Position numbers and translations under genes: made by a program | Notes under the pieces: generated by a model | Databases searched by the model: none | What the model was told of the DNA's origin: nothing | Seen by the model: only the letters and a program-made list of their open reading frames with translations | Shown: positions 14,680 through 62,126 of the stretch, in pieces | How the letters are laid out: each line of letters begins with the position of its first letter | Numbering within the stretch: position 1 is the first letter of the stretch | Source of the DNA: Heptranchias perlo | Taxonomy: Eukaryota | Length of the DNA: 64,000 nucleotides | NCBI RefSeq assembly: GCF_035084215.1 | Contig: NC_090335.1 | Coordinates: 68,820,001-68,884,000 of the forward strand | Direction of reading: 5' to 3'

Positions 14680-14766
14680 GTTGCTTGACTGAGTTGACAT
14701 CAGAACCGACAACACCAAATGTGTTAACAACAACTTCCAGCCTGATATCAACCACAACAACAACAG
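14680..14766 (+). CDS. membrane mucin, first identifiable coding exon (GCLTELTSEPTTPNVLTTTSSLISTTTTT)
   Basis: Polypyrimidine tract and TACAG acceptor, G|GTAAAG donor, 87 bp, phase 1-1, Thr-rich and in frame with the next exon. Confidence 0.75.
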
Positions 14767-14859
14767 GTAAAGAAGTCCTTAACCAATGAGCATTCAACAC
14801 CTAGCCAGGTTTCCACCAGCACATTGGGAGTTGCTGCTAAGTTACATTAAGTGTCCCTG

Positions 14860-14980
14860 AAGACTCAGTTGGTAAAGGCATTGTGTGACTGAGCCAAGAA
14901 GTCCCAGACTTGATCTCAGCCTGGACTTGTGCTGAATTAGCTGAATAGGCAGTAAAAGCCCTGCAACTGGCTCCAGTACT
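14860..14980 (+). repeat. old tRNA-derived SINE head fragment
   Basis: ACTCAGTTGGTA..CTGAGCCA..GTCCCAG..TGTGCTGAATTAGCTGA is similar to 62540-62670. Confidence 0.45.
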
Positions 14981-15079
14981 TCTGGTAATAGAGTTGTGGA
15001 ATAGTTTACTGGGGAAGACCATTGAAATGATCAATATAAATGGCCTCAAGAGGTAACTTCAAGATATACTTTTGGACGT

Positions 15080-15265
15080 TTTTTTTATTCGTTCATGGGA
15101 TGTGGGCGTCGCTGGCAAGGCCGGCATTTATTACCCATCCCTAATTGCCCTTGAGAAGGTGGTGGTGAGCCGCCTTCTTGAACCGCTGCAGTCTGTGTGG
15201 TAAAGGTTCTCCCACAGTGCTGTTAGGTAGGGAGTTCCAGGATTTTGACCCAGCGACGATGAAGG
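15080..15265 (-). mobile_element. 3' end of a second LINE family (A-rich tail)
   Basis: Reverse complement of the sequence at 55222-55345; AATAAA and A-tail. Confidence 0.75.
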
Positions 15266-17146
15266 GCTTGAAGGATCTGGTGGGGTTGTGATGTATTGTA
15301 AATGAATAAGCTTGGACAGCAATAGCTGCTCATAATTCGGCAACAGAAATCTCACTTTGAAAGGCAAATACAAATTAGGCTGTGAAATAACATGTGACAT
15401 TGTTGGAGCAGAGCAGGCAATGTGTTGCATGTTATGTGTTGCTTGTTATGCCTGAACTGGAGATAGTCCTTGCAGACACTTGGGGCGGATTTCTCTCCTG
15501 TCTGCAAGGGCTCAGCATTGCTGCAGTGTAGTGTGGCTGGCTGCAGTGCAAGAAATTAAAAAGATTCAAATCTCCCACTCTGCCTAGAGCAATCAATCAT
15601 TCAACTCTTAAAATCCCCTCCCCCGCCCCCCCCCCCCCCCCCCCACTCCCCCTCCCGACCCATAGCAACCCTGGACATCTAACGGCCAGCGCTGCTATGA
15701 CGCAAATAGCGGAAAATACATTGTGTGACATATTCCAGTCACTTAGATGTTGCTTAGGTGCTCGTGCAATTGTTATGATGCTTTCATTTTAAGGCAGTCC
15801 ACCACTCCATGAATATTTGACCTAAAGAGGCAAGTTTCAGGTTGGCTTCTGGGCATTAAAAGCTATCCTCTGAAGCCATGGCACATTCGTTGTATCCCAG
15901 GACACCAGTGAAGCAAAGATGTAATGAGATGCAGTCATTCATCTGAATCATCATCGAGCACAACAATGGAATACATGGAAAGATGAGAGCGAAGGAGCAC
16001 TTCCCAGTGAAGGATGGGGCTTCAAAGTGCACCCTGCTGTATAATAGCTACGCATGGTAGGCAATGAAAGTACTTTGGGATTGTGTGATAGGGTGGTAAT
16101 TGTAAGTGTCATATATACACTTAGTAGGCTGCATTAATGGAGGGTAAAGATACTTTATCTTGCCTTAGTTGACTTGGTAAGGTCATTAAATATTCCTTCT
16201 GAATTACCACCAAATAAGTAAGATGCTGTTCATGGTGCTAACATGGGTTCACATCTTCTCCCATTCCCCATGGGCTGCTTTTCTTGGGCCTGCTCACTGC
16301 TAAAAAGGGCTCCCTTCTTTGCTTCGCTTCCTCCAAGAGATCTTTCATGGCCCCATCACAGAGATAGGACACTTTGGCTCCCACCTGCACTGTATCCAGA
16401 TATGAGTCTGGATTTTCCTCTGCTATACTACTTGCAATTGGGTATTAATATGACGATGGAGCAGGAAACCTGGGGTGAGATGGAGCAGGAAACATAGGCT
16501 GGATCATCCACCCTCAAAAAGTATCATTGAACATTTTCTTTCTGTGTGATGGCTGGCTCCCGCTGTAAAGCAATGTTGCTACCAAGACCCCATTCCCATG
16601 TGCACAGTGAACACTGACCCACCAAAACGAGTCGGGGTCACGATAGGTTGGGGGCAGCTGGTGGAAGTCCCTTTTTGGCCCACGCTCAGCAATGATAATT
16701 CCACCAGAGTAAAATCGAGCCCATGTCATAAATTTTGTTGGTCTTTCATTGAAAAGTAGTTTTTCACTCTCACTGTCAGACCCTTCAACACCATGCCGCC
16801 TTTCCCAGACTGACACACTAATGACCCACCCAATCTTTAACCAATGCCATTTTGGCTACCAGGAAATGTATGAGAGAAGCCCAAGGAATTCAATCCTCTA
16901 AATTTCCCATCCACATTATAGGTGGAAAGGAAGGAGCTATCACTCTGCCCCAACTCCTGATAATCCAGGTAAGATGGGGGCTCTCCTTGTGGTGAATCAC
17001 ACTGCAAATACAAGGACTGCAGCTTTGTGTTGTGACATAATAGCACACCAATACATGAGGCTATAAGCAGCCATGAAGCTGAATATTGATGAACAATTTC
17101 ACAAATGCTGATGCTTACAAGTTATTTGTTTTTACTTTCACTGCAG

Positions 17147-20100
17147 ATTCTACCAGTTCAGATGGAGGCTCCCCAACAACATTGACTACAACCACCACTG
17201 CCTCATCAACGACCCCAACTACACCACCAAATACTGCAGGAAAACTAACAACTGTATTAACTACCGCATCCACCACTGAAAACCCAACAATCACGTTAAC
17301 CACAACCGCAACAACAAATACAACACCAGTGAACATACTCACAACAACAACACCATACACCACACCAGAAACTACAACCTCAAATATGACAGCTGAAACT
17401 ACAACTACATCAACCACACCAGAAACTACAACACCAACAATCACACCAGAACCTACAATCACAAAAACAACAACAGAAACTACAACAACAGCTATGACAC
17501 CTGAAACTACAAACCCAACGACCACACCAGAAAATACAAGCCCAACTATTACACCTGAAACTACAACCCCAATTACAACACCAGAAATTACAACCACAAC
17601 AACAACACCAGAAACTGCAACCCCAACTATCATACCTGAAACTACAACCACAACAAACACAACAGAAACTACAACACCAACTACCACACCAGGAACAACA
17701 ACACCAACAAACACACAAGAAACTACAACCTCAACTATCACACCAGAAACTACAACCCCAACAACCACACAAGAAACTACAACCCCAACAAACACACCAG
17801 AAACTGCATCACCAACAATCACTCCAGATATTACAACCCTAACCAATGCACCAGAAACTACAACACCAACAATCTCACCAGAAACTACAACCACAACAAA
17901 CACACCAGAAACTACAACCCCAAATATCACACTAGAAACTACAACACCAAGTATCACACCAAAAACTACAACACCAACTATCACACCAGATACTACAACC
18001 CTAATTAACACGCCAGAAACTACAACCCCAACAATCACAACAGAAACTACAACACAAACTATCACACCAGAAACTACAACATCAACAAACACACCAGAAA
18101 ACACATCACCAAAAATCACTCCAGAAATTACAACACCAACAACCATAACAGAAAGTACAACCCCAACTCTCACACCAGAAACGACAACACCAACAATCAC
18201 ACCAGAAACTACAACCACAACAAACACACCAGAAACTACAACCCCAAAAATAACATCAGAAAATATAACCACAACTCTCACACCAGAAACTTCAACACCA
18301 ACAATCACAACAGAAACTACAACACCAACAATCACTTCAGAAACTACAACCCCAACAAACATACCAGATACTACAAACCCATCTACCACACCAGGAACTA
18401 CAATCCCAACAACCACACCAGAAACTACAACTCAAACTCTCACACCAGTAACTACAACCCCAAATATCACACCCGAAACGACCACACCAACAATCACATC
18501 AGAAAATACAACCCCAACTACCAAAACAGAAACTACAATCTCAACAACCACACCAGAAACTACAACCCCAACTCTCACACCAGAAACGACAACACCAACT
18601 ATCACACCAGATACTACAACCCCAATTAACACACCAGAAATTACAACACCAACAATCACACTAGAAATTACAACACCAACTATCACAACAGAAACTACGA
18701 CCCCAACAAACACACCAGAAATGACAACACCAACAATCACATCAGAAACTACAACCCCAACTACTACGCCAGAATCTGCAACACCGACAATCACATCAGA
18801 AACTACAACCCCAATTAACACACCAGAAACTACAACACCAACAACCACAACAGAAAGTACAACCCCAACTCTCACACCAGAAACAACAACACCAATAATC
18901 ACACCAGAAACTACAACACCAACAATGACACCAGAAACTACAGCCCCAACAACCACAACGGAAACTACAACACCAACAATCACACCAGATACTACAACCC
19001 TAACTAACGCACCAGAAACTACAACCACAACAAACACACCAGAAACTACAACTCCAACTATAACACCAGAAACTACAACACCAACAATCACACCAAAAAC
19101 TAAAACCCCATCAACCACAGCAGAATCTACCACCCCAACTACCACACAAGATACTACAACCCCAATTAACACACAAGTAACAACAGCACCAACAATCACA
19201 CCAGGAACTTTAACCCCAACTATCACACCAGAAACTATATCTGCAACTATCACACCAGAAACTACATCTGCAACTATCACACCAGAAACTACAACACCAA
19301 CAATCACACCGGAAACTACAACCCCAACTATCACACCAGAAACTACATCTGCAACTATCACACCAGAAACTACAACACCAACAATCACACCGGAAACTAC
19401 AACCCCAACTACCATGCCAGAAACTACAACCCAAACAAACACAATAGAAACTGCAGCACCAACAATTACATCAGAAACTCCAATTCCAGCTATCACACCA
19501 GACACTACACCAACAATCACACCAGACACTACACCAACAATCACACCAGAAACTACACCAACAATCACACCAGACACGACACCAACAATCACACCAGACA
19601 CTACACCAACAATCACACCAGAAACTACAACACCAACAATCACACCAGAAACTACACCAACAATCACACCAGAAACTACACCAACAATCACACCAGAAAC
19701 TACACCAACAATCACACCAGAAACTACAACACCAACAATCACACCAGAAACTACACCAACAATCACACCAGAAACTACACCAACAATCACACCAGAAACT
19801 ACACCAACAATCACACCAGAAACTAATACACCAACAATGACATCAGAATCTACAACAACAACTACCACTCCAGAAACAGCAACCCAAATTCTCACACCAG
19901 AAACGACAACCCCAATTATCACACCAAAAACTACAACCCCAATTACAACACTAGGAACTACAACCCCAAATATCACACCAGAAACTACAAATCCAACTTC
20001 AACACCAGAAACTACAACTCCAACTTCAACACCAGAAACTATAACCCCAACTATCACAACAGAAGCTACAACTCCAAGAAACACACCAGAAATTACAACC

Positions 20101-23100
20101 CCAAATACCACACCAGAAAGTACAACCCCAACTATCACACCAGAATCTAAAAATCCAAATATCACAACAGACACTACAGCCCCAGCTATGACACCAGAAA
20201 CTGCAACATCAACTACCACACCAAAATCTACAACCCCAACTATCACACCAGAAACTACAACCCCAACTACCACACCAGAAACTACAATCCCAACTACCAC
20301 ACCAGAAACTACAACCCCAATTAACACACCAGAAATTACAACACCAACAATCACACCAGAAACTACGACCCCAACAAACACACCAGAAATGACAACACCA
20401 ACAATCACATCAGAAACTACAACCCCAATTAACACACCAGAAACAACAACACCAACAATGACGCCAGAAACTACAGCCCCAACAACCACAACGGAAACTA
20501 CAACACCAACAATCACATCAGAAACTACAACCCCAACTACTACGCCAGAATCTGCAACACCAACAATCACATCAGAAACTGCAACCCCAATTAACACACC
20601 AGAAACTACAACACCATCAATTACAACAGAAAGTATAACCCCAACTCTAACACCAGAAACAACAACACCAATAATCACACCAGAAACTACAACACCAACA
20701 ATGACACCAGAAACTACAGCCCCAACAACCACAACGGAAACTATAACACCAACAATCACACCAGATACTACAAACATAACTAACGCACCAGAAACTACAA
20801 CCACAACAAACACACCAGAAACTCCAACTCCAACTATAACACCAGAAACTAAAACCCCATCAACCACAGCAGAATCTACCACCCCAACTACCACACCAGA
20901 TACTACAACCCCAATTAACACACAAGTAACAACAGCACCAACAATCACACCAGGAACTTTAACCCCAACTATCACACCAGAAACTACATCTGCAACTATC
21001 ACACCAGAAACTACAACACGAACAATCACACCGGAAACTACAACCCCAACTATCACACCAGAAACTACATCTGCAACTATCACACCAGAAACTACAACAC
21101 CAACAATCACACCGGAAACTACAACCCCAACTACCACGCCAGAAACTACAACCCAAACAAACACAATAGAAACTGCAGCACCAACAATTACATCAGAAAC
21201 TCCAATCCCAGCTATCACACCAGACACTACACCAACAATCACACCAGAAACTACAACACCAACAATCACACCAGACACTACACCAACAATCACACCAGAA
21301 ACTACACCAACAATCACACCTGACACTACACCAACAATCACACCAGAAACTACACCAACAATCACACCAGAAACTACACCAACAATCACACCAGAAACTA
21401 CACCAACAATCATACCAGAAACTACACCAACAATCACACCAGAAACTACACCAACAATCACACCAGAAACTACACCAACAATCACACCAGAAACTACACC
21501 AACAATCATACCAGAAACTACACCAACAATCACACCAGAAACTACACCAACAATCATACCAGAAACTACACCAAAAATCACACCAGAAACTACTACACCA
21601 ACAATGACATCACAATCTACAACAACAACTACCACACCAGAAACTATAACCCCAACTAACACTCCAGAAACAGCAACCCAAATTCTCACACCAGAAACGA
21701 CAACCCCAACTATCACACCAAAAACTACAACCCCAATTACAACACAAGGAACTACAACCCCAAATATCACACCAGAAACTACAACTCCAACTTCAACACC
21801 AGAAACTACAACCCCAAATATCACACCAGAAACTACAACTCCAACTTCAACACCAGAAACTATAACCCCAACTATCACAACAGAAGCTACAACTCCAACA
21901 AACACACCAGAAATTACAACCCCAAATACCACACCAGAAAGTACAACCCCAACTATCACACCAGAATCTAAAAATCCAAATATCACAACAGACACTACAG
22001 CCCCAACTATGACACCAGAAACTGCAACATCAACTACCACACCAAAATCTACAACCCCAACTATCACACCAGAATCTGCAACCCCAACTAACAGACCAGA
22101 AACTACTACCCCAACTAACAGACCAGAAACTACTACCCCAACTATCACACCAGATACTACAACCCCAATTAACACACCACAAATTACAACACCAACAATC
22201 ACACCAGAAACTACGACCCGAACAAACACACCAGAAATGACAACACCAACAATCACATCAGAAACTACAACCCCAACTACTACACCAGAATCTGCAACAC
22301 CAACAATCACATCAGAAACTACAACCCCAATTAACACACCAGAAACTACAACACCAACAACCACAACAGAAAGTATAACCCCAACTCTCACACCAGAAAC
22401 AACAACACCAACAATGACACCAGAAACCACAGCCCCAACAACCACAACGGAAACTACAACACCAACAATCACACCAGATACTACAATCCTAACTAACGCA
22501 CCAGAAACTACAACCACAACTATAACACCAGAAACTACAACACCAACTATCACACCAGAAACTACGACCCCAACAAACACACCAGAAATGACAACACCAA
22601 CAATCACATCAGAAACTACAACCCCAACTACTACGCCAGAATCTGCAACACCAACAATGACATCAGAAACTACAACCCCAATTAACACACCGGAAACTAC
22701 AACACCAACAATCACAACAGAAAGTATAACCCCAACTCTCACACCAGAAACAACAACACCAATAATCACACCAGAAACTACAACACCAACAATGACACCA
22801 GAAACTACAGCCCCAACAACCACAACGGAAACTACAACACCAACAATGACACCAGAAACTACAGCCCCAACAACCACAACGGAAACTACAACACCAACAA
22901 TCACACCAGAAACTAAAACCCTAACAACCACAGCAGAATCTACCACCCCAACTACCACACCAGATACTACAACCCCAATTAACACACAAGTAACAACAGC
23001 ACCAACAATCACACCAGGAACTTTAACCCCAACTATCACACCAGAAACTACATCTGCAACTATCACACCAGAAACTACAACACGAACAATCACACCGGAA

Positions 23101-26100
23101 ACTACAACCCCAACTATCACACCAGAAACTACATCTGCAACTATCACACCAGAAACTACAACACCAACAATCACACCGGAAACTACAACCCCAACTACCA
23201 CACCAGAAACTACAACCCAAACAAACACAATAGAAACTGCAGCACCAACAATTACATCAGAAACTCCAATCCCAGCTATCACACCAGACACTACACCAAC
23301 AATCACACCAGAAACTACAACACCAACAATCACACCAGAAACTACACCAACAATCACACCAGAAACTACAACACCAACAATCACACCAGAAACTACAACA
23401 CCAACAATCACACCAGAAACTACACCAACAATCACACCAGAAACTACAACACCAACAATCACACCAGAAACTACACCAACAATCACACCAGAAACTACAC
23501 CAACAATCATACCAGAAACTACACCAACAATCATACCAGAAACTACACCAAAAATCACACCAGAAACTACACCAACAATCACACCAGAAACTACACCAAC
23601 AATCACACCAGAAACTACACCAACAATGACATCAGAATCTACAACAACAACTACCACACCAGAAACTATAACCCCAACGACCACTCCAGAAACAGCAACC
23701 CAAATTCTCACACCAGAAACGACAACCCCAACTATCACACCAAAAACTACAACCCCAATTACAACACAAGGAACTACAACCCCAAATATCACACCAGAAA
23801 CTACAACTCCAACTTCAACACCAGAAACTACAACCCCAAATACCACACCAGAAAGTACAACCCCAACTATCACACCAGAATCTAAAAATCCAAATATCAC
23901 AACAGACACTACAGCCCCAACTATGACACCAGAAACTGCAACATCAACTAACAGACCAGAAACTACTACCCCAACTATCACACCAGAATCTGCAACCCCA
24001 ACTATCACACCAGATACTACAACCCCAATTAACACACAAGTAACAACAGCACCAACAATCACACCAGGAACTTTAACCCCAACTATCACACCAGAAACTA
24101 CATCTGCAACTATCACACCAGAAACTACAACACGAACAATCACACCGGAAACTACAACCCCAACTATCACACCAGAAACTACATCTGCAACTATCACACC
24201 AGAAACTACAACACCAACAATCACACCGGAAACTACAACCCCAACTACCACGCCAGAAACTACAACCCAAACAAACACAATAGAAACTGCAGCACCAACA
24301 ATTACATCAGAAACTCCAATCCCAGCTATCACACCAGACACTACACCAACAATCACACCGGAAACTACAACACCAACAATCACACCAGAAACTACACCAA
24401 CAATCACACCAGAAACTACACCAACAATCACACCAGAAACTACACCAACAATCACACCAGAAACTACACCAACAATCACACCAGAAACTACACCAACAAT
24501 GACATCAGAATCTACAACAACAACTACCACACCAGAAACTATAACCCCAACGACCACTCCAGAAACAGCAACCCAAATTCTCACACCAGAAACGACAACC
24601 CCAACTATCACACCAAAAACTACAACCCCAATTACAACACAAGGAACTACAACCCCAAATATCACACCAGAAACTACAACTCCAACTTCAACACCAGAAA
24701 CTACAACCCCAAATACCACACCAGAAAGTACAACCCCAACTATCACACCAGAAACTACACCAACAATCACACCAGAAACTACACCAACAATCACACCAGA
24801 AACTACACCAACAATCACACCAGAAACCAGAACACCAACAATCACAGCAGAATCTACAACAACAACTATCACACCAGAAACTATGACCCCAACAAACACA
24901 CCAGAAACTGCAACATCAACTAACAGACCAGAAACTACTACCCCAACTATCACACCAGAATCTGCAACCCCAACTATCACACCAGATACTACAACCCCAA
25001 TTAACACACCAGAAATTACAACACCAACAATCACACCAGAAACTACGACCCCAACAAACACACCAGAAATGACAACACCAACAATCACATCAGAAACTAC
25101 AACCCGAACTACTACACCAGAATCTGCAACACCGACAATCACATCAGAAACTACAACCCCAACTCTCACACCAGAAAAAACAACACCAACAATCACAACA
25201 GAAAGTATAACCCCAACTCTCACACCAGAAACAACAACACCAATAATCACACCAGAAACTACAGCCCCAACAACCACAACGGAAACTACAACACCAACAA
25301 TCACACCAGATACTACAACCCTAACTAACGCACCAGAAACTACAACCACAACAAACACACCAGAAACTACAACTCCAACTATAACACCAGAAACTACAAC
25401 ACCAACAATCACACCAGAAACTAAAACCCTAACAACCACAGCAGAATCTACCACCCCAACTACCACACCAGATACTACAACCCCAATTAATACACAAGTA
25501 ACAACAGCACCAACAATCACACCTGAAACTTTAACCCCAACTATCACACAAGAAACTACAACACCAACAATCACATCGGAAACTACAACCCGAACTATCA
25601 CACCAGAAACTACATCTGCAACTATCACACCAGAAACTACAACACCAACAATCATACGGGAAACTAAAACCCCAACTACTACACCAGAAACTACAACCCC
25701 AAATAACACACCAGAAACTACAACCCCAAATAACAAACCAGAAACTACGACCCCAACAAACACACCAGAAACTACAACACAAACTATCACACCAGAAACT
25801 ACGACCACAACAAACACACCAGAAACGACAACACGAACAATCACAGCAGAAGCTACAACACCAACCATCATACCAGAAAATACAACACCCAATAACACAC
25901 CAGAAACTACAACCCCAACTATCACACCAGAAACTACAGCCCCAAATATCACACGTGCAACTACAATCACAACTATCACACCAGAAAATCCAACTATCAC
26001 ACCAGAAACTACATCTGCAACGATCACACCAGAAACTACAACACCAACAATCACACCAGAAACTACAATCCCAGCTATCACACCAGAAACTACACCAACA

Positions 26101-29100
26101 GTCACACCAGAAACTACAACACCAACAATCACACCAGACACTACAACAACAATCACACAAGAAACGACACCAACAATCACACCAGAAACTACAACAATAA
26201 TCACACCAGAAACTACACCAACAATCACACCAGAAACTACTACACCAACAATCACACCAGAAACTACACCAACAATCACACCAGAAACTACACCAACAAT
26301 CACACCAGAAACTACACCAACAATCACACCAGAAACCAGAACACCAACAATCACAGCAGAATCTACAACAACAACTATCACACCAGAAACTATGACCCCA
26401 ACAAACACACCAGAAACGACAACACGAACAATCACAGCAGAAGCTACAACACCAACCATCATACCAGAAACTACAACACCCAATAACACACCAGAAACTA
26501 CAACCCCAACTATCGCACCAGAAACTACAACTCCAAATATCACACCTGCAACTACAATCACAACTATCACACCAGAAAATCCAACTATCACACCAGAAAC
26601 TACATCTGCAGCTATCACACCAGAAACTACAACACCAACAAGCACACCAGAAACTACAACCCCAGCTATCACACCAGAAACTACAATCCCAGCTATCACT
26701 CCAGACACTACACCAACAATCACACCAGAAACTACACCAACAATCACACCAGAAACTACACCAACAATCACACCAGAAACTACACCAACAATCACACCAG
26801 AAACTACAACACCAACAATGACATCAGAATCGACAACAACAACTAACACTCCAGAAACTATAACCCCAACAAACACACCAGAAACGACAACCCCAACTAT
26901 CACACCAAAAACTACAACCCCAATTACGACACTAGGAACTACAACCACAACTATCACGCCAGAAACTACAACCCAAACAAACACAATAGAAACTGCAGCA
27001 CCAACAATTGCATCAGAAACTACAACCCCAAATAACACACCAGAAACTACAACCGCAAATAACACACCAGAAACTACAACCCCAAATAACACACCAGAAA
27101 CTACGACCCCAACAAAAACACCAGAAACGACAACACCAACAATCACAGCAGAAGCTACAACACCAACCATCATACCAGAAACTACAACACCCAATAACAC
27201 ACCAGAAACTACAACCCCAACTATCACACCAGAAACTACAGCCCCAAATATCACACCTGCAACTACAATCACAACTATCACACCAGAAAATCCAACTATC
27301 ACACCAGAAACTACATCTGCAACTATCGCACCAGAAACTACAACACCAACAAGCACACCAGAAACTACAATCCCAGCTATCACACGAGAAACTACACCAA
27401 CAATCACACCAGAAACTACACCAACAATCACACCAGAAACTACAATCCCAGCTATCACACCAGAAACGACACCAACAGTCACACCAGAAACTACAATCCC
27501 AGCTATCACACCAGAAACTACACCAACAGTCACACCAGAAACTACAACACCAACAATCACACCAGAAACTACACCAACAATCACACCAGAAACTACAATC
27601 CCAGCTATCACACCAGAAACTACACCAACAATCACACCAGAAACTACACCAACAATCACATCAGAAACTACACCAACAATCACACCAGAAACTACACCAA
27701 CAATCATACCAGAAACTACACCAACAATCACACCAGAAACTACTACACCAACAATCACACCAGAAACTATAACCCCAACGACCACTCCAGAAACAGCAAC
27801 CCAAATTCTCACACCAGAAACGACAACCCCAACTATCACACCAAAAACTACAACCCCAATTACGACACTAGGAACTACAACCCCAAATATCACACCAGAA
27901 ACTACAACTCCAACTTCAACACCAGAAATTACAACCCCAAATACCATACCAGAAAGTACAACCCCAACTATCACACCAGAATCTAAAAATCCAAATATCA
28001 CAACAGACACTACAGCCCCAACTATGACACCAGAAACTGCAACATCAACTACCACACCAAAATCTACAACCCCAACTATCACACCAGAAACTACAACCCC
28101 AACTACCACACCAGAATCTACAACCCCAACTATCACACCAGAAACTACAACCCCAACTATCACACCAGAATCTACAACCCCAACCATCATACCAGAAACT
28201 ACAACCCCAACTATCGCTCCAGAAACTACAACCCCAAATATCACACCTGCAACGACAATCACAACTATCACACCAGAAAATCCAACCATCACACCAGAAA
28301 CTACATCTGCAACTATCACACCAGAAACTACAACACCAACAATCACACCGGAAACTACAACCCCAACTATCACACCAGAATCTACAACCCCAAATATCAC
28401 ACAAGAATCTACAACCCCAACTATCATACCAGAAGCTACAACCCCAACTACCATACCAGAAACTACAACCCCAACTACCACACCAGAAACTACAACCCCA
28501 ACTATCACAGCAGGAACTACAACCCCAACTACCATAACAGAAACTACAACCCCAACTACCACACCAGAATCTACAACCCCAAATATCACACAAGAATCTA
28601 CAACCCCAACTATCATACCAGAAGCTACAACCCCAACTACCATACCAGAAACTACAACCCCAACTATCATACCAGAAGCTACAACCCCAACTACCATACC
28701 AGAAACTACAACCCCAACTACCATACCAGAAACTACAACCCCAACTACCACACCAGAAACGACAACCCCAACTATCACACCAGGAGCTACAACCCCAACT
28801 ACCACACCAGAAACTACAACCCCAACTACCACACCAGAAACTACAACCTCAACCAACACACCAGAAACTAAAACCGCAACGACCACACCAGAAGCTACAA
28901 CCCCAACGACCACACCAGAAACTAGAAACCCAACTACCACACCAGAAACTACAACCCCAACTATCACACCAGAAACTACAACCTCAACCAACACACCAGA
29001 AACTACAACCGCAACTACCACACCAGAAACTACAACCTCAACCAACACACCAGAAACTACAACCGCAACTACCACACCAGAAACTACAACCCCAACTATC

Positions 29101-32100
29101 ACACCAGAAACTACAACCCCAACTACCACACCAGAAACTACAACCCCAACTACCACACCAGAAACTACAACCTCAACCAACACACCAGAAACTACAACCG
29201 CAACTACCACACCAGAAACTACAACGCCAACTACCACACCAGAAACTACAACCCCAACTACATCACCAGAAACTACAACCTCAACTACCACACCAGAAAC
29301 TACAACCCCAACTACCACACCAGAAACTACAACGCCAACTTCCACACCAGAAACTACAACCCCAACTATCACACCAGGAACTACAACCCCATCTACCACA
29401 CCAGTAACTACAACCCCATTTACCACACCAGAAACTACATCCGCAACTACCACACCAGAAACTACAACCGGAACTACCACACCAGAAACTACACCCTCAA
29501 CTACCATACCAGAAACTACAACCCCAACTACCATACCAGAAATTACAACCGCAACTACCACACCAGAAACTACAACCCCAACTAGCACACCAGAAACTAC
29601 AACCGCAACTACCACACCAGAAACTACAAACTCAACTACCACACCAGAAACTACGACCCCATCTACCACACCAGGAACTACAACCCCAACTACCACACCA
29701 GAAAATACAACCCCAACTACCACACCAGAAACTACAACCCAAACTACCACACCAGAAAATACAACCCCAACTATCACACCAGTAACTTCAACCCCAACAA
29801 TCACAGCAGAAACTACAACCCCAACTACCACACCAGAAACTACAACCCCAACTACCATACCAGAAACTACAACCCCAACTGCCACACCAGAAACAACAAC
29901 CTCAACTACCAAACCAGAAACTACAACCGCAAATACCACACCAGAAACTACAACCCCAACTACCATACTGGAAACTACAACCCCAACTACCATACCAGAA
30001 ACTACAACCCCAACTATCACACCAGAAACTACAACCCCAACTACCACACCAGAAACTACAACCTCAACTACGACACCACAAACTACAACCCCAACTACCA
30101 CACCAGAAACTACAACCCTAACTTCCACACCAGAAACTACAACCCCAACTACCACACCAGAAACTACAACCTCAACTACCACACCAGAAACTACAACCCC
30201 AACTACCACACCAGAAACTACAACCCCAACCAACTCACCAGAAACTACAATCCCAACTACCACACCAGAAATTACAACCGCAACTACCACACCAGAAACT
30301 ACAACCCCAACTACCACACCAGAAACTACAACCCCATCTACCACACCAGGAACTACAACCCCAACTACCACACCAGAAACTACAACCTCAACCAACACAC
30401 CAGAAACTAAAACCACAACGACCACACCAGAAACTAGAACCCCAACTACCACACCAGAAACTACAACCGCAACTACCACACCAGAAACCACAAACCCAAC
30501 TACCACACCAGAAACTACACCCCCGACTACCACACCAGAAACTACACCCTCAACTACCACACCAGAAATTACAACCCCAACTAGCACACCAGAAACTACA
30601 ACCCCAACTACCACACCAGAAAATACAACCCCAACTACCGCACCAGAAACTACGACCCCAACTAGCACACCAGAAACTACAACCCCAACTACCACACCAG
30701 AAAATACAACCCCAACTACCACACCAGAAAATACAACCCCAACTACCACACCAGAAAATACAACCCCAACTACCACACCAGAAACTACACCCTCAACTAC
30801 CAGACCAGAAACTACAACCCCAACTACCACATCAGGAACTACAACCCCAACTACCACACCAGGAACTCCAACCCCAACTACCACACCAGAAGCTACAACC
30901 CCAACTACCATACCAGAAACTACAACCACAACTGCCACACCAGAAACAACAACCTCAACTACCATACTGGAAACTACAACCCCAACTATCACACCAGAAA
31001 CTACAACCCCAACTATCACACCAGAAACTACAACCCCAACTACCACACCAGAAACTAGAACCGCAAATACCACACCAGAAACTACAACCCCAACTACCAT
31101 ACTGGAAACTACAACCCCAACTATCACACCAGAAACTACAACCCCAACTATCACACCAGAAACTACAACCCCAACTACCACACCAGAAACTAAAACCTCA
31201 ACTACCACACCACAAACTACAACCACAACTGCCACACCAGAAACAACAACCTCAACTACCACACCAGAAACTACAACCCCAACTATCACACCAGAAACTA
31301 CAACCCCAACTACCACACCAGAAACTAAAACCTCAACTACCACACCACAAACTACAACCCCAACTACCACACCAGAAACTACAACCCTAACTTCCACACC
31401 AGAAACTACAACCCCAACTACCACACCAGAAACTACAACCCCAACTACCACACCAGAAACTACAACCTCAACTACCACACCAGAAACTACAACCCCAAAT
31501 ACCACACCGGAAACTACAACCCCAACCAACTCACCAGAAACTACAACCGCAACTACCACACCAGAAACTACAACCCCATTTACCACACCAGAAACTACAT
31601 CCGCAACTACCACACCAGAAACTACAACCGGAACTACCACACCAGAAACTACAACCCCAACTACCACACCAGAAACTACATCCGCAACTACCACACCAGA
31701 AACTACAACCGGAACTACCACACCAGTAACTACAACCCCATTTACCACACCAGAAACTACATCCGCAACTACCACACCAGAAACTACAACCGGAACTACC
31801 ACACCAGAAACTACAACCCCAACTACCACACCAGAAACTACAACCCCAACTACCATACCAGAAATTACAACCGCAACTACCACACCAGAAACTACAACCC
31901 CAACTAGCACACCAGAAACTACAACCGCAACTACCACACAAGAAACTACAAACTCAACTACCACACCAGAAACTACGACCCCATCTACCACACCAGGAAC
32001 TACAACCCCAACTACCACACCAGAAAATACAACCCCAACTACCACACCAGAAACTACAACCCAAACTACCACACCAGAAAATACAACCCCAACTATCACA

Positions 32101-35100
32101 CCAGTAACTTCAACCCCAACAATCACAGCAGAAACTACAACCCCATCTACCACACCAGGAACTACAACCCCAACTACCACACCAGAAACTACAACCTCAA
32201 CCAACACACCAGAAACTAAAACCACAACGACCACACCAGAAACTAGAACCCCAACTACCACACCAGAAACTACAACCCCAACTATCACACCAGAAACTAC
32301 ATCCGCAACTTCCACACCAGAAACTACAACCCCAACGACCACACCAGAAACAGCAACCTCAACTACCACACCAGAAACTACAACCACAACTACCACACCA
32401 GAAACTACAACCCCAACTATCACACAAGAAACTACAACCCCAACTACCACACCAGAAACTACAACCTCAACCAACACACCAGAAACTGCAACCGCAACTA
32501 CCACACCAGAAACTACAACGCCAACTACCACACCAGAAACTACAACCCTAACTTCCACACCAGAAACTACAACCCCAACTATCACACCAGGAACTACAAC
32601 TCCATCGAACACACAAGGAACTACAACCCAAAATATCACACCAGGAACTACAACCCCAACTACCACACCAGAAACTACAACCCTAACATCCACACCAGAC
32701 ACTACAACCCCATCTACCACACCAGTAACTACAACCCCATTTACCACACCAGAAACTACATCCGCAACTACCACACCAGAAACTACAACCGGAACTACCA
32801 CACCAGAAACTACACCCCCAACTACCATACCAGAAACTACAACCCCAACTACCATACCAGAAACTACAACCACAACTACCACACCAGAAACTACAACCCC
32901 AACCACCACACCAGAAACTACAACCGCAACTACCACACCAGAAACCACAAACCCAACTACCACACCAGAAACTACACCCCCGACTACCACACCAGAAACT
33001 ACACCCTCAACTACCACACCAGAAACTACAACCCCAACTAGCACACCAGAAACTACAACCCCAACTACCACACCAGAAAATACAACCCCAACTACCGCAC
33101 CAGAAACTACGACCCCAACTAGCACACCAGAAACTACAACCCCAACTACCACACCAGAAAATACAACCCCAACTACTACACCAGAAAATACAACCCCAAC
33201 TACCACACCAGAAACTACACCCTCAACTACCAGACCAGAAAATACAACCCCAACTACCACACCAGAAACTACAACCCCAACTACCACACCACAAAATACA
33301 ACCCCAATTATCACACCAGTAACTACAACCCCAACTATCACAGCAGGAACTACAACCCCATCTACCACGCCAGGAACTACAACCCCAACTATCACACCAG
33401 GAACTCCAACCCCAACTACCACACCAGAAGCTACAACCCCAACTACCATACCAGAAACTACAACCACAACTGCCACACCAGAAACAACAACCTCAACTAC
33501 CACACCAGAAACTAGAACCGCAAATACCACACCAGAAACTACAACCCCAACTACCATACTGGAAACTACAACCCCAACTACCATACCAGAAACTACAACC
33601 CCAACTATCACACCAGAAACTACAACCCCAACTACCACACCAGAAACTAAAACCTCAACTACCACACCACAAACTACAACCCCAACTACCACACCAGAAA
33701 CTAGAACCCTAACTTCCACACCAGAAACTACAACCCCAACTACCACACCAGAAACTACAACCTCAACTACCACACCAGAAACTACAACCCCAAATACCAC
33801 ACCAGAAACTACAACCCCAACTACCACACCGGAAACTACAACCGCAACTACCACACCAGAAATTACAACCGCAACTACCACACCAGTAACTACAACCCCA
33901 TTTACCACACCAGAAACTACATCCGCAACTACCACACCAGAAACTACAACCGGAACTACCACACCAGAAATTACACCCTCAACTACCATACCAGAAACTA
34001 CAACCCCAACTACCATACCAGAAATTACAACCGCAACTACCACACCAGAAACTACAACCCCAACTAGCACACCAGAAACTACAACCGCAACTACCACACC
34101 AGAAACTACAAACTCAACTACCACACCAGAAACTACGACCCCATCTACCACACCAGGAACTACAACCCCAACTACCACACCAGAAAATACAACCCCAACT
34201 ACCACACCAGAAACTACAACCCAAACTACCACACCAGAAAATACAACCCCAACTATCACACCAGTAACTTCAACCCCAACAATCACAGCAGAAACTACAA
34301 CCCCATCTACCACACCAGGAACTACAACCCCAACTACCACACCAGAAACTACAACCTCAACCAACACACCAGAAACTAAAACCACAACGACCACACCAGA
34401 AACTACAACCCCAACTATCACACCAGAAACTACATCCGCAACTTCCACACCAGAAACTACAACCCCAACGACCACACCAGAAACAGCAACCTCAACTACC
34501 ACACCAGAAACTACAACCACAACTACCACACCAGAAACTACAACCCCAACTATCACACAAGAAACTACAACCCCAACTACCACACCAGAAACTACAACCT
34601 CAACCAACACACCAGAAACTGCAACCGCAACTACCACACCAGAAACTACAACGCCAACTACCACACCAGAAACTACAACCCCAACTACCTCACCAGAAAC
34701 TACAACCTCAACTACCACACCAGAAACTACAACCCCAACTACCACACCAGAAACTACAACCCTAACTTCCACACCAGATACTACAACCCCAACTATCACA
34801 CCAGGAACTACAACTCCATCGAACACACAAGGAACTACAACCCAAAATATCACACCAGGAACTACAACCCCAACTACCACACCAGAAACTACAACCCTAA
34901 CATCCACACCAGACACTACAACCCCATCTACCACACCAGTAACTACAACCCCATTTACCACACCAGAAACTACATCCGCAACTACCACACCAGAAACTAC
35001 AACCGGAACTACCACACCAGAAACTACACCCCCAACTACCATACCAGAAACTACAACCCCAACTACCATACCAGAAACTACAACCGCAACTACCACACCA

Positions 35101-41100: not shown

Positions 41101-43123
41101 ACCCCAACTACCACACCAGAAACTAAAACCCCAACTACCACACCAGAAACTACAACCCCAACTACCACACCAGGAACTACAACCCCATCTACCACACCAG
41201 AAACTACAACCCCAACTACCACACCAGAAACTACAACCCCAACTACCACACCAGAAACTACAACCCCAACTACCACAACAGAAACTACAACCGCAACTAC
41301 CACACCAGAAACTACAACCCCAACTACCACACCAGAAACTACAACCCCAACTACCACACCAGGAACTACAACCCCATCTACCACACCAGAAACTACAACC
41401 CCAACTACCACACCAGAAACTACAACCCCAACTACCACACCAGAAACTACAACCCCAACTACCACACCAGAAACTACAACCCCAACTACCACACCAGAAA
41501 CTACAATCCCAACTACCACACCAGGAACTACAACCCCAACTACCACACCAGAAACTACAACCCCAACTACCACACCAGGATCTACAACCCCAACTACCAC
41601 ACCAGAAACTACAACCCCAACTACCACACCAGAAACTACAACCCCAACTACCACACCAGAAACTACAATCCCAACTACCACACCAGGAACTCCAACCCCA
41701 ACTACCACACCAGAAACTACAACCCCATCTACCACACTAGAAACTACAATCCCAACCAGCACACCAATCACCACAGCCCCATTTTCTGCACCAATCGCAA
41801 CGCTAAATACCACACGCACCACAATAATCCCATCTACCACACGAGAAACTACAACACCATCTACCACACGAGAAATGACTGTACCATCTCCCACACCAGG
41901 AACTGCAACCCCAACTATCACACCAGAAACTACAAACCCCACTATCACACCAGGAACTACAACCCTAACTATCACACCAGAAACTACAACCTCATCTACC
42001 ACACCAGAAACTACAATCCCAACTACCACACTAGAAACTACAATCCCAACCAGCACACCAATCACCACAGCCCCATTTTCTGCATCAATTGCAACCCTAG
42101 CTACCACACTCACCACAATAATCCCATCTACCACACGAGAAACTACAACACCATCTACCACGCGAGAAATGACTGTACCATCTCCCACACCAGAAATGAC
42201 TACACCATCTACCACACGAGAAACTACAACACCATCTACCACACGAGAAATGACTACACCATCTCCCACACCAGGAACGACTACACCATCTCCCACACCA
42301 GGAACGACTACACCATCTCCCACACCAGGAACGACTACACCATCTACCACACGAGAAGTGACTACACCATCTACCACACTGGAAACTAGAGCCCCATCTA
42401 CCACTCCACAAACTACAACCCCAACTACCACACCAGAAACTACAATCCGAACCAGCACACCAATCACAACAGCCCCATTTTCTGCATCAATTGCAACCCT
42501 AAATACCACACGCACCACAATAACCCCATCCACTATACGAGAATCTATTACACCATCTACCACATCAGAAACTACAACCCCAACTATCACACCAGAAACT
42601 ACAACCCCAACTATCACAACAGAAACTACAACCCCAACTATCACACCAGAAACTACAACCCCAACTATCACACCAGAAACTACAACCCCAACTATCACAC
42701 CAGAAACTACAACCCCAACTATCACAACAGAAACTACTACCCCAACTATCACACCAGAAACTACAACCCCAACTATCACACCAGAAACTACAACCCCAAC
42801 TATCACACCAGAAACTACAACCCCAACTACCACACCAGAAACTACAACCCCAACTATCACACCAGAAACTACAACCCCAACTATCACACCAGAAACTACA
42901 ACCCCAACTATCACACCAGAAACTACAACCCCAACTATCACACCAGAAACTACAACCCCAACTATCACACCAGGAACTACAGCCCTAGTTTCCGCACCAA
43001 TTGTAATCCTAACCAGCACCTCAATCACAACAACCCCAAGCGCAACATCCACAAGACCCCGATCTACCGCACCCACCAGCACCATCACCACCGCTACCAC
43101 CATGACCTCTGATGCCTCCTGTG
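17147..43123 (+). CDS. membrane mucin, giant PTS exon (25,977 bp, 8,659 codons of T/P/E/I repeats)
   Basis: Uninterrupted ORF 17086..43131; acceptor TTTTTACTTTCACTGCAG|AT at 17146/7; donor TGTG|GTAAGT at 43123/4; phase 1-1. Confidence 0.93.
17350..42980 (+). repeat. coding minisatellite of 24-bp (PETTTPT[I/T]T-type) and 21-bp (PETTPTIT-type) related units with kb-scale higher-order duplications
   Basis: CCAGAAACTACAACCCCAACTA(C/T)CACA consensus seen throughout; a shorter unit lacking one ACA codon occurs in arrays; unit lengths are 27 and 24 bp when the full PE..T repeat is counted. Confidence 0.9.
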
Positions 43124-47566: not shown

Positions 47567-47824
47567 TGCCAGTGAGGTTCATTCGTATGAATTTGATTCG
47601 AGTGAAAAGTGTAGAGATTGCAATTTCCTGGGACACTAACAATGGATTCAACCGGGCTCGTTATGAAGTCACTCTCTTCAGGGCTGACATTAAAATAAGC
47701 ACAATTACAACTAATAAAAAAAAGGCAGTATTCAGGGATCTAATGCCTGATGTTGAATATCAGGTTTTTATTTTGGTGATAACTTGTAATCAACGAGAGT
47801 CAATACGAAGAACAATCAGGACAC
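47567..47824 (+). CDS. membrane mucin exon: fibronectin type III-like domain
   Basis: TTTTGCAG acceptor, C|GTAAGT donor, 258 bp, phase 1-1; IAISW..YEVTL..FRDLMPDVEYQVFI fits the FN3 W/Y/LxPxxxY pattern. Confidence 0.85.
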
Positions 47825-50492: not shown

Positions 50493-50605
50493 GTTCCAAG
50501 GTGTTGGGCACAACAACAAGAATTAAAAACAAGAATTTCTTACCAGAATTTAGAGACAAAAACAGTCAGGAATACAAACAATTCACAGAGAATTTCATTA
50601 AGGAT
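50493..50605 (+). CDS. membrane mucin exon: SEA domain 1, N-terminal half
   Basis: CCAAAG acceptor, GAT|GTAAGT donor, 113 bp, phase 1-0; RIKNKNFLPEFRDKNSQEYKQF. Confidence 0.88.
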
Positions 50606-51584: not shown

Positions 51585-51722
51585 ACAGAGACAGCTGCCA
51601 ACCAGGGCTGAATGACTGTTCAGGTAATGGAACGTGTATAAGATTGAATGCAACTTACACCTGTCAGTGTAATGCCGGGTTCACAGACACAAGCCCCAAT
51701 ACACCTGGAAGAACATGTGAAG
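51585..51722 (+). CDS. membrane mucin exon: EGF-like domain 1
   Basis: 138 bp, phase 1-1; DRDSCQPGLNDCSGNGTCIRLNATYTCQCNAGFTDTSPNTPGRTCE (6 Cys). Confidence 0.92.
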
Positions 51723-51815
51723 GTAGGACATTGTCTGAGGTTAACACGGCTTTAGGTCATTGGGTTAAAACAACTTTTGCTCCAACTGATTGTTTTTATC
51801 TAATTCTTGTTTCAG

Positions 51816-51953
51816 ATATTGACGAGTGTCAGACTGGGAACAACACATGCTCTGATTTTGCTGCCTGCACAAACACCCCAGGGAATTACTCATGTGGATG
51901 TTTCCAGGGAATTTTAGATATCAATCCGGCAAACCCAGGAACACAGTGCAGAG
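51816..51953 (+). CDS. membrane mucin exon: calcium-binding EGF domain
   Basis: 138 bp, phase 1-1; DIDECQTGNNTCSDFAACTNTPGNYSCGCFQGILDINPANPGTQCR (DIDEC and CxNxxGxYxC consensus). Confidence 0.93.
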
Positions 51954-54702: not shown

Positions 54703-54783
54703 ATCCTAATGCTTGTTTCATCAATAAGAGAGATATCTGTGCTTTGTCTGACTGCATGCTGATTACAACCAGTGACTGCAACC
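54703..54783 (+). CDS. membrane mucin exon: short 4-Cys linker module
   Basis: TTTACCTACAG acceptor, C|GTGAGT donor, 81 bp, phase 1-1; DPNACFINKRDICALSDCMLITTSDCN. Confidence 0.75.
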
Positions 54784-57185: not shown

Positions 57186-57298
57186 ACAAAATAGCATTCA
57201 GAATGAAGGCAACATTCAGCACCGAAGAGTTCTCCAATGACCTGAAAAATCCTGCAAGTGAAGCCTACAGGAGCTTATCTGCCAATTTTATAAATACA
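57186..57298 (+). CDS. membrane mucin exon: SEA domain 2, N-terminal half
   Basis: TTTCCACAG acceptor, ACA|GTAAGT donor, 113 bp, phase 1-0 (same size and phase as the SEA1 exon); FSNDLKNPASEAYRSL. Confidence 0.9.
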
Positions 57299-59577: not shown

Positions 59578-59659
59578 AATTGTATTTATATTTCATACAG
59601 ACTGTGTTTAGTCACTGGGCTGGATATCCCTTTTCTTGCCTTACCAGTCGTATTTCTTT

Positions 59660-60066
59660 TATGTAGATGGTTGAATGGATGAGTTGATGGATGAGTGGAT
59701 GGGTGGGTGGGTGGGTGGATGGAAGGATGGGTATACAGTTGGAAAAATAGCTGGATGGGTGGATGGATAGATAAATTGATGAATGGGTGTCTGGATAGAT
59801 GGATGGGTGAATGATGGGTGGATGAGTGGGTGGAAAGTGGATGGGTGGTGACTAGATGGATGACTGGATGGGTAGATGGATGGATAGAATGGTAGCTGGA
59901 TGGATGAGAGGGTGGGTAATGAGTGGGTGGGTGGATGGATGGATTGATGAATGTGAACCCGGATGGATGGGTGAATGATGAGTGGATAGGTGGGTGGATG
60001 GATGACTGGATGTGTAGATGGATGGATAGAATGGTAGCTGAGTGGATGAGAGGGTGGGGTGAATGG
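59660..60066. repeat. degenerate (GGAT/GGGT)n simple repeat
   Basis: Seen directly in the sequence; includes a duplicated ~60-bp subunit. Confidence 0.92.
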
Positions 60067-60120
60067 AACTCGGAAGTATTTCTTAATGGCAATGAAATAA
60101 TATTTATGCTTTGTCTTTAG

Positions 60121-60316
60121 GTTGTGCCAACTACACAAACCAAGCTTAATGATAAAAGTTTTAATATCTCCATCATTGGTTTTCAAAATGGAAGTGTAGA
60201 GGTAAATTTCCTGGCTGTCTTGAACAACAACTCAACTGTCAACACGACCACACTGCTAAATGCTGTTGGTGGTGCGATCAAAGCACTTGATAGTAACAGT
60301 TTAGTCATCATAACGG
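60121..60316 (+). CDS. membrane mucin exon: SEA domain 2, C-terminal half
   Basis: TCTTTAG acceptor, G|GTAAGT donor, 196 bp, phase 0-1; IIGFQNGSVEVNF motif. Confidence 0.9.
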
Positions 60317-60490
60317 GTAAGTATTATGATGATAATTATCATAACAATATCTATCTGGTGATAATCATATGGTCAGTGCTTCCGTGAACTTTACTCTCTT
60401 ATTTGTTCTATGCTCCAAAAAAACGTCCTACACACTCCTCCTCCACTCTGATTCCTAAATGTGTTGAAATCAAGATTCACTGTACCATAT

Positions 60491-60985
60491 CATAGACACA
60501 TAGAAACATAGAAAATTTACAGCGCAGAAGAAGGCCATTCGGCCCATCGTTTCTGTGTCGGTCGAAATAGAGCTACTCAGCCTAATCCCACTTTCTAGCA
60601 CTTGGTCCGTAGCCCTGTAGGAGTATGTAGGCATTTCAAGTGCATATCCAAGTGCCTTTTAAATTCTGCCTCTACCACCCTTTCAGGTAGTGAATTCCAG
60701 ACCCCCACCACCCTCGGGTGAAAAAACATTTTCCTCAGTTCCCCTCTAATCCTTCTACTAATCACTTTAAATATATGCCCCCTGGTTATTGACCTCTCTG
60801 CCAAGGGAAACAGGTCCTTCCTGTCCCCTCAGAATTTCATACACCCCAACTAAATCGCCCCCCAGCCTCCTCTGTTCCAAAGAAAACAACCCCAGCCTAT
60901 CCAATCTTTCCTCATAGCTAAAATTCTGTAGTCCTGGCAACATCCTCGTAAATCTTCTCTGCACCCCCTCTAGTGCAATCACATC
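60491..60985 (-). mobile_element. CR1 3' end
   Basis: ALEGVQRRFTRMLPGL..LEQRRLGGDL; CATAGAAA tail. Confidence 0.9.
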
Positions 60986-61881
60986 TAATTCATTCTTTGT
61001 CAGGACTTAAAAACTGTGGAACTCTTTACCTTTCTCAGTCTTTGCTTCCTCCTACAATCTTAATGATTTTAAAATCAAAGCACAGTGTCATCTAGTCATT
61101 ACTTCTTGATTTACCTTATCATATCATTTATTTTTTTCAACTTTGGTTCTATACGACGAACCTAGGTTTCTCAATCAAAAAAGAAAGTCTTTATTTACTT
61201 GTAATGGTGCTGTTTCGTTTTTTTAAGTCTTCAATGGAAAGGAAAGTTGGACAAGATCTGCTACTGCTCATTTTTCACCCCCGCCAAAGTTGAATTTTAC
61301 CCCCATTGATGCATTAATTAGAGATGATGGATGCCTTGCCTTACCTTATGACTTAACCTTGTCAAACTTGAGCTAGTTCTGGTGATGCTGTATTATGGAG
61401 TGGGTAGTATTGAGGCTCTACAGGCCCTGCAGTTCCTCCACACATTGTTGACCGGATCCCAGCAAGATAATTTGGGAAAGAGACAAGGTTGGAGGAAGGA
61501 GAGTCAACCTGGCCTGACGTTGTGTAACTTCTAGTAGCCAATTTGGAGTTACATTGGTGGTAGCTTGAAAACAGAGCATCCACCTGTCTTCTTCTTTGAA
61601 TGGTGTGGGACTCCAATGGGGATGAACACAGAGGGTACCACTGCATGTTATTCTGTATGGAAAGCACTGCAAGCTATGGTCTATTATTAATGTAACATTC
61701 TGCAACCCTTGTTATTCGGCATGAAACACTAATGTCTAGGTGCTCCCCTGTCTGTAACACACTTTGGTCTTGTGTGATCTATACATATTATCGTTTTCCT
61801 TTATTCTTTGCAACACCAACTCTGTGCACAAATTTTTAATTACAATAGTTTTTAAAAAAAATTCCACGTTGTCTGTTTTAG

Positions 61882-62126
61882 GTACAACACAACTTACGAC
61901 TGAGGCCCCCATCCAACCACAGACTGTGCCCACGGTGCAGTCCAAACCTGGATCCGAAAACCCTGGATGGAGAGTGACTGTGATTGTTTTGGGAGCTGTT
62001 CTAGGTGTGGCTCTGCTGATAATCCTGGCAGTAGTAGTGGCAATGATCTATATAAAGAAAAACTGCAGGAAGTATGATATTGGTGGCTCTGACATTGTAC
62101 GACAAATCAACTATTCAAATATATAG
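61882..62126 (+). CDS. membrane mucin terminal exon: stalk, transmembrane helix, cytoplasmic tail, stop codon
   Basis: TGTTTTAG acceptor, phase 1; hydrophobic VTVIVLGAVLGVALLIILAVVVAMIYI, then KKNCRK stop-transfer; TAG at 62124-62126. Confidence 0.92.

Follow-up and report, generated by a model that had tools for sequence, protein, structure and literature searches.

The 64,000-nucleotide stretch of Heptranchias perlo DNA analyzed here, which we call the window (contig NC_090335.1, positions 68,820,001 to 68,884,000, forward strand), holds 11 exons of a giant gene lying directly downstream of UMODL1. We read this gene as encoding a predicted single-pass membrane mucin of 9,204 residues. The gene likely originated when the 3′ half of UMODL1 was duplicated in tandem, and its product likely builds a sugar-coated epithelial brush; we give this reading a probability of about 0.8. 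The predicted protein runs from a domain with a high content of proline, threonine and serine (PTS) through FN3, SEA1, EGF, a calcium-binding EGF (cbEGF), a four-cysteine mini-domain (Cys4) and SEA2 to a transmembrane (TM) segment. With less confidence, though we lean toward it, we see in the gene one member of an ancient, undescribed jawed-vertebrate family of membrane mucins. Its founder would be a UMODL1 duplicate that swapped ZP for Cys4-SEA and expanded a linker exon. The family would have been kept in sharks, bony fish, amphibians, reptiles and birds and lost in mammals, would represent a second, independent MUC3/17-like cluster, and would include multi-module giants in sharks whose EGF pair is held uniform by gene conversion.

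Structure and expression of the mucin gene

Joined in order (Table 1), the window exons keep one frame open for 9,187 codons up to the stop. All 11 have an AG acceptor, the 10 internal donors are all GT, and the phases agree, just as the original prediction, made from the letters alone, had it. That prediction also took these exons for one intact type-I membrane protein. The intact type-I mucin is supported, but the gene extends beyond these exons, since the first begins at an acceptor and has no Met. Signal-peptide exons were sought in four intergenic intervals by a simple hydropathy scan, not SignalP, and then by DNA search. The scan gave one candidate outside the window, 961 bp before its start (G000:C11:68,819,040-68,819,088), and similar ones before two downstream genes; the DNA search added a fourth. 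The exon is hydrophobic, 16 codons long, common to the four paralogues and preceded by a TATA-like element ∼110 nt upstream. With it, the complete prediction is a type-I membrane mucin of 9,204 aa with 5,070 Ser/Thr residues. The 18-kb interval between this exon and the PTS exon contains seven candidate open segments of phase 1/1. The sole PTS-rich one, which has two alternative acceptors, is a plausible exon 2.

The PTS exon is a 27-nt tandem repeat of ∼958 copies with PETTTPTTT as its commonest unit. Its product is 54% Thr, 18% Pro and 9% Glu (Thr, Pro and Ser together 76%), providing the large tandem-repeat domain expected of a SEA-type TM mucin. The reading frame has no stop, whereas the remaining sense frames have 144 and 89, and each of the 8,612 repeat offsets counted is a multiple of 3. 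One antisense frame is likewise open, for 8,235 codons, so the openness of the exon is partly compositional.

Both Pfam and a fold model bear out the predicted order of the folded domains. Pfam places EGF and EGF_CA above cut-off, two SEA stretches at 51 bits and fn3 at 22.5 bits (cut-off 25); the Cys4 exon has no Pfam match, this being a domain without a Pfam model. In the AlphaFold model, which is of the database protein of the gene and used an alignment of 33 sequences, block means of confidence are mostly 82–97 for FN3, SEA1, both EGFs and SEA2, and 64–89 for Cys4. Its SEA matches that of MUC16 (Z 13.3, root-mean-square deviation 3.3, 120 aligned) and its FN3 that of fibronectin (Z 12.2). 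A first fold, of a basking-shark paralogue with 11 alignment rows, had a mean predicted local distance difference test score (pLDDT) of 65, and Foldseek with whole models gave weak multi-domain matches. The window-gene model has confident folds, with pLDDT mostly 85–97, and contains the TM helix. The predicted protein thus has the signal peptide, single TM segment and short tail of SEA-type mucins, and its juxtamembrane SEA is one of two such domains recognized by Pfam and fold.

Transcript evidence shows splicing of three exons of the folded region. Four sequence runs were listed, none recorded as RNA, so that their RNA type is a guess. Run X1 contains 98% of the words that make up the last exon and the 3′ untranslated region (UTR), and one of its contigs, 1,210 nt long, joins window positions 50850–50981, 51583–51720 and 51814–51951 without introns; a loose end behind 50983 also starts with the EGF exon. 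The SEA1 part of this contig has no mismatches where the paralogues are only ∼66% identical, so the transcript comes from the window gene. We infer that its other 802 nt are downstream exons and UTR ending just past the AATAAA. The RefSeq protein reads through the 93-nt intron between the EGF exons, an arrangement we reject because the intron is spliced out in the contig and the read-through stretch has pLDDT <50 in the fold model. Run X1 leaves the last part of the PTS exon, FN3 and the first exon of SEA1 uncovered, and its contigs are filtered, so it gives no verdict on the PTS-to-FN3 junction. That junction is predicted from splice sites, phase and a conserved cysteine, and from orthologue models of other sharks and a ray, which likewise run PTS-Cys-FN3. 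The last exon is not in runs X3 and X4, which have one common sample code.

Probable origin from UMODL1 and other explanations

The database names the window gene "uromodulin-like 1, partial". However, the gene immediately upstream, in the same orientation, is the true UMODL1. It has exons for EMI, WAP-like, EGF, FN3, SEA and ZP domains, plus a TM and stop exon of its own near C11:68,781,300. Compared exon by exon with sawfish UMODL1, it shows 40–88% identity across 28 matched stretches, two of which come from a gene further upstream. Its ZP exons were found by open reading frame (ORF) reading and Pfam, the genome-wide ZP listing being filled by an unrelated expansion. The mucin adjoins this gene and resembles its 3′ half. 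The FN3, SEA, SEA and EGF exons measure 258/113/220/138 nt in the mucin and 258/113/220/141 nt in the last FN3-SEA-EGF module of UMODL1, in the same phases. A Cys at the end of the Ser/Thr/Pro linker, paired with a second late in FN3, occurs in 20 of 23 family and 20 of 24 UMODL1 proteins, although a few of the UMODL1 cases may be EGF cysteines. UMODL1 tails reach ≥5 bits on the family-tail profile in 29 of 38 cases, against 10 of 760 shuffles. Among the listed FN3-SEA-EGF matches, the named proteins that follow the family members are UMODL1 proteins. In a 116-row SEA tree, family SEA1 (41 rows, support 100/99) falls among the SEAs of UMODL1 and SEA2 makes up a clade of its own (34 rows, 99/99); the window gene groups with one orthologue per shark or ray species (100/97). 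Exon sizes, cysteine pair, SEA tree, tail and adjoining locus thus agree with the kinship to UMODL1 that had been proposed.

The described layout of UMODL1/olfactorin is EMI-WAP-EGF-FN3-SEA-EGF-ZP-TM, in the accessible part of PMC8874799. The two genes share the linker-Cys-FN3-SEA-EGF module, its exon phases, the long final EGF loop and a single exon for TM and Tyr-containing tail. The mucin differs in its giant PTS exon, additional cbEGF-Cys4-SEA2, separate promoter and signal peptide, tandem expansion, and lack of EMI, WAP and ZP. Its signal peptide precedes PTS, the EMI exon lying in the upstream gene, and profile comparison found no ZP in it or in 15 cartilaginous-fish relatives, as predicted. 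The duplicate would have retained the linker-FN3-SEA-EGF exons and the TM/tail exon, shed the EMI/WAP and ZP exons, and acquired cbEGF-Cys4-SEA2, while the Ser/Thr/Pro linker exon grew into the tandem-repeat PTS domain. The original prediction had a PTS exon joined to a UMODL1-like cassette. Because both exons end in a Cys just before FN3, the PTS exon is better read as the UMODL1 linker exon, likely expanded.

Four other explanations were considered. The name, strand, position and common exon structure would also suit exons that are a part or isoform of UMODL1 itself. We reject this and give it practically no chance: UMODL1 is complete upstream, the window gene has its own signal-peptide exon and TATA-like element, and its second SEA1 exon is only 27–33% identical to UMODL1 exons. 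We also hold it highly improbable that the gene is a shark orthologue of MUC3/12/17, MUC13 or HEG1 with extra domains, even though some relatives carry the automatic names mucin-17-like and mucin-12. Like the MUC3A/3B/12/17 genes, as far as the accessible text of PMC9578598 and PMC13643018 describes them, it belongs to a tandem membrane-mucin cluster and has one huge PTS exon, a SEA Gly-Ser loop, EGF-like domains and a short class I PDZ tail. In those same texts, however, the mammalian genes lie between ACHE and TRIM56/SERPINE1, have one SEA flanked by EGFs, and are described without FN3 or Cys4. MUC13 and HEG1 share PTS, EGF and TM with the shark gene, and MUC13 a SEA as well (PMC1552070), but they lie at another locus and have at most one SEA and no FN3; Cys4 is not described in them either. 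The window cluster is flanked instead by UMODL1 and BTB-zinc-finger genes on one side and ABCG1-like and trypsin-type protease genes on the other. MUC13 and HEG1 are neighbored by ITGB5 and SLC12A8, and the MUC13-HEG1 pair is absent from the window locus (its own locus in this genome was not located). An origin of the window family independent of the MUC3 cluster is likely.

The remaining two explanations concern the PTS exon. If it were skipped, or if it and the folded cassette were mostly expressed apart, a short SEA/EGF membrane protein would result. This we judge improbable, although the flanking exons are all phase 1 and the frame would survive skipping. A second signal-peptide exon was not found by DNA search, the PTS exon is stop-free with a strong GTAAGT donor, its final Cys and that of FN3 are conserved jointly in the family and in UMODL1, and in each of the 11 paralogous modules FN3 is preceded by a PTS exon that ends in the same way. 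There is a small but real chance that the gene is sound and the 26-kb length of the exon was inflated or collapsed by assembly, since it contains near-exact higher-order repeat blocks of 0.9–4.7 kb and orthologue models carry only 70–320 PTS residues, though such models are often truncated. Against this, the 26 kb contain no N and no frameshift, and composition drifts along them (Ile from ∼0.09 to 0.03). Such sizes also have precedents: a tortoise relative reaches 4,418 aa, and the human MUC3B PTS exon is given as 39,267 bp in the accessible text of PMC9578598.

Several observations weigh against the duplicated-mucin reading that we prefer. The RefSeq protein for the gene, a partial one of 684 aa, leaves out most of the PTS exon. 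Autoproteolysis of SEA-type mucins takes place at G-S-[V/I]-V-V, after which the halves can separate under force (PMC13643018, accessible text). The GSVTV loop of SEA1 and the GSVEV loop of SEA2 keep the Gly-Ser in place but depart from this canonical motif, so the protein may not cleave itself; GSVVV is found in the SEA2 of many relatives. The class I PDZ pattern lacks family-wide conservation, being present in 8 of 8 direct orthologues but in 12 of 37 family tails. In a 41-row SEA subset, SEA1 goes with UMODL1 (support 97), yet the UMODL1 SEAs form their own group (91). A single clade of SEA1 and SEA2 is not rejected there (approximately unbiased test, p-AU 0.49). The SEA alignment is short, at 110 columns, and the trees are without mammalian MUC3/12/13/17 or HEG1 sequences, none having been returned by the searches. 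Synteny was examined in this one genome.

A genome-wide SEA search gave half-domain exons only, which were left out of the trees. As a possible source of SEA2, we compared a SEA-EGF-ZP gene upstream of UMODL1; scores were weak (15–19 bits) and it has no Cys4 exon.

The cluster and its relatives across vertebrates

Downstream of the window gene lie 11 more copies of the module. Four signal-peptide and four TM exons in an 864-kb region delimit four genes, A (the window gene), B, C and D. Gene B has six modules, one of them incomplete (5,244 aa predicted), gene C four (3,970 aa), and gene D one (3,709 aa, with a 3,030-codon PTS exon). Genes B and C repeat the whole mucin module, splicing across modules being predicted, and their modules diverge little (synonymous difference pS ∼0.05). 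In module B5 (G000:C11:69,123,637-69,129,915), Cys4-SEA2 is missing and the EGF intron is 28 nt, probably too short for splicing. A broken cbEGF exon copy has a stop at 68,972,493, and ∼10 kb of purine-rich simple repeat occupies an intron of gene B (G000:C11:69,140,950-69,150,900, L036-L037).

Divergence between gene A and the other 11 modules is uneven. Synonymous differences are 38–43% in FN3 and SEA1 and 23–32% in Cys4 and SEA2, but 5–11% in the EGF pair. Across the EGF-intron-cbEGF tract (window 51540–52000 and the 11 modules), the exons are 93–99% identical and the intron between them is 86–98% identical in 10 of the 11 modules. Identity drops to background ∼50 nt outside the exons. Gene conversion of a ∼450-bp tract is the likely cause of this homogeneity. 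Protein constraint alone was rejected because synonymous sites and the intron are homogenized too.

Beyond the cluster follows an ABCG1-like gene, one exon of which scores E 1.3e-20 as against 1e-3 for ABCG8; ABCG4, absent from the PDB matches, is not strictly excluded. A minus-strand trypsin-type protease exon lies further on. On the upstream side are a BTB-zinc-finger gene with a single ORF and more zinc-finger exons, presumably ZBTB21 and PRDM15. Mouse Umodl1 adjoins Abcg1 (PMC2778371, accessible part), which fits insertion of the cluster into that interval. The SEA-EGF-ZP-like gene just upstream of UMODL1 (G000:C11:68,645,600-68,656,140, L073-L074) is fused to UMODL1 in the sawfish database model. 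The UMODL1 of this shark (G000:C11:68,723,000-68,738,400) has several extra tandem FN3 exons, compared with two in the manatee protein.

Word-based searches, in which 15 of 106 matches were family members from sharks and a ray under varied automatic names, suggested a shark-only family, a view overturned by HMMER. With FN3-SEA1-EGF as query, HMMER gave 394 matches, and among the best 150 listed we sorted ZP-bearing UMODL1 from ZP-less proteins with our own profiles. Thirty names looked up among these comprised two ZP-bearing UMODL1 proteins (sawfish, manatee) and 28 ZP-less proteins or fragments, none of them mammalian, which came from chimaera, shark, ray, gar, eel, pike, blackfish, salmonids, frogs, caecilian, lizards, turtles and birds. 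This suggests loss of the family in mammals. The full layout, PTS-FN3-SEA-EGF-EGF-Cys4-SEA-TM, is found in soft-shell turtle, two lizards, Xenopus and conger eel. The architecture including Cys4 extends to turtle, lizard, frog, caecilian, eel, gar and salmonid proteins, with a variant in birds; the family is thus not confined to fish, where the original prediction placed it. A search with the turtle Cys4-SEA2-tail region found 12 matches among 688 candidates, all of them turtles, birds or a lizard. The Cys4 profile scores 25–53 bits on family members and ≤12 on any other sequence compared. Mucin-17-like, mucin-12, mua-3-like, UROL1 and DAN4-like are among the automatic names of relatives.

Table 1. 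Exons and associated elements of the mucin gene (window coordinates) and location of its paralogues (genome coordinates)
Feature	Position	Strand	Basis
Small Thr/Ser/Pro-rich exon, predicted exon 2, phase 1-1	14680..14766	+	Splice sites, frame
Giant PTS mucin exon, 25,977 nt, 8,658 codons, ending in conserved Cys before FN3	17147..43123	+	
FN3 exon, 258 nt, phase 1-1	47567..47824	+	Pfam, fold model; size equals last FN3 exon of neighboring UMODL1
SEA1 exon 1, 113 nt	50493..50605	+	Pfam
SEA1 exon 2, 220 nt, G-S-V-T-V loop	50764..50983	+	Fold model; 3′ part inside spliced contig
EGF exon; begins tract homogenized among paralogues	51585..51722	+	Pfam, spliced contig
93-nt intron between EGF and cbEGF exons	51723..51815	+	Removed in RNA-type contig; kept in RefSeq model
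Calcium-binding EGF exon	51816..51953	+	Pfam, spliced contig
Four-cysteine (Cys4) mini-domain exon, family marker from sharks to birds	54703..54783	+	No Pfam match
SEA2 exon 1, 113 nt	57186..57298	+	Pfam
SEA2 exon 2, 196 nt, G-S-V-E-V loop	60121..60316	+	Pfam, fold
Last coding exon: short PTS stalk, TM helix, 23-residue tail ending I-N-Y-S-N-I	61882..62126	+	
AATAAA, likely polyadenylation signal	62277..62282	+	Sequence
Paralogous genes B, C, D	G000:C11:68,968,474-69,423,028 (L019-L064)		All exons open, AG/GT

Elsewhere in the window, positions 1–14600 and the introns consist mostly of reverse-transcriptase-like repeats, which we take to be LINEs, and SINE-like repeats. One element occurs as an inverted pair at ∼6770–8210; a transposase-like remnant lies at ∼11400–14000 and a GATG microsatellite at 59666–60027. 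ZP4/ZPB-like egg-coat genes have expanded at chromosome scale elsewhere in the genome, with dozens of Trefoil and ZP-C pairs 1.3–2.5 kb apart along the whole of C23 (1.7–30 Mb) and further matches on C1594, C32:7.3-7.5 Mb, C31:30.8-30.9 Mb and C49, all among the best 150 of 434 and best 150 of 165 candidates. A second ZP expansion is on C38.

Proposed function and meaning of the family

By likeness to known SEA-type mucins, the signal peptide would direct the protein into the secretory route, where many of its 5,070 Ser/Thr residues would be O-glycosylated. At 0.25 nm per residue, the resulting extended rod would measure ∼2 micrometres. Below it, a disulfide-bonded, calcium-binding EGF pair would stiffen a stalk of FN3, SEA, EGF and Cys4 domains, and one or both SEA domains, if they self-cleave at Gly-Ser, would serve as force-sensitive release points. 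The C-terminal tail, with its Tyr-x-x-Ile and class I PDZ motifs, would control apical retention and recycling. A terminal Tyr-x-x-hydrophobic motif occurs in 24 of 37 family tails, twice as many as the PDZ pattern, so endocytic sorting is the better-conserved candidate tail function; here we assume the usual motif definitions and a likeness to endolyn and LAMP tails. The product is likely a MUC17-like glycocalyx brush of independent origin, by analogy with MUC17 as the accessible text of PMC13643018 describes it.

It is useful to contrast this family with two further systems. MUC16 and the alternating SEA-PTS mucins of Xenopus also have several SEAs, and genes B and C of the cluster likewise alternate PTS and folded modules. 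In the accessible parts of PMC1552070 and PMC4948705, however, SEA alone is repeated, whereas the cluster repeats a PTS-FN3-SEA-EGF-cbEGF-Cys4-SEA unit, and the Xenopus alternating family is described as secreted. On the minus strand at G000:C32:19.88-20.18 Mb, at least eight SEA exon matches mark what is possibly a MUC16-like or alternating SEA mucin locus. The adhesion G protein-coupled receptor ADGRF1 (GPR110) provides a weak likeness that serves as a lead only: family profiles match residues 93–214 across the cbEGF end, Cys4 and SEA2 (E 1.2e-5; E 2.3e-4), in an alignment that was not inspected, and in a structure search the ninth match aligns 470–606, below the level at which that search assigns a name.

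The family is known in kind, as a SEA-type membrane mucin, yet distinct in architecture and probably separate in origin. We found no description of it in the literature, in keeping with the original prediction, although the seven Xenopus SEA-type membrane mucins of Lang et al. 2007 (cited in the accessible text of PMC9578598) may include one member, and an unassigned chicken PTS-SEA protein mentioned in PMC1552070 (accessible part) could be another. How SEA-type membrane mucins arose, and which membrane mucins exist in vertebrates other than mammals, is poorly charted. This locus offers a traceable case in which a ZP-domain matrix protein would have given rise to a membrane mucin, the parent gene and its offspring being neighbors. 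The "mucinization" model is described, in the accessible part of PMC9417175, for secreted mammalian proteins without TM domains; the locus would extend it to an old membrane-bound family. Many misnamed database entries would thereby be united in one family. Finally, members in Xenopus, salmonids and birds make these ideas testable in laboratory animals, and the family may matter for the mucosal barriers of farmed fish and birds.

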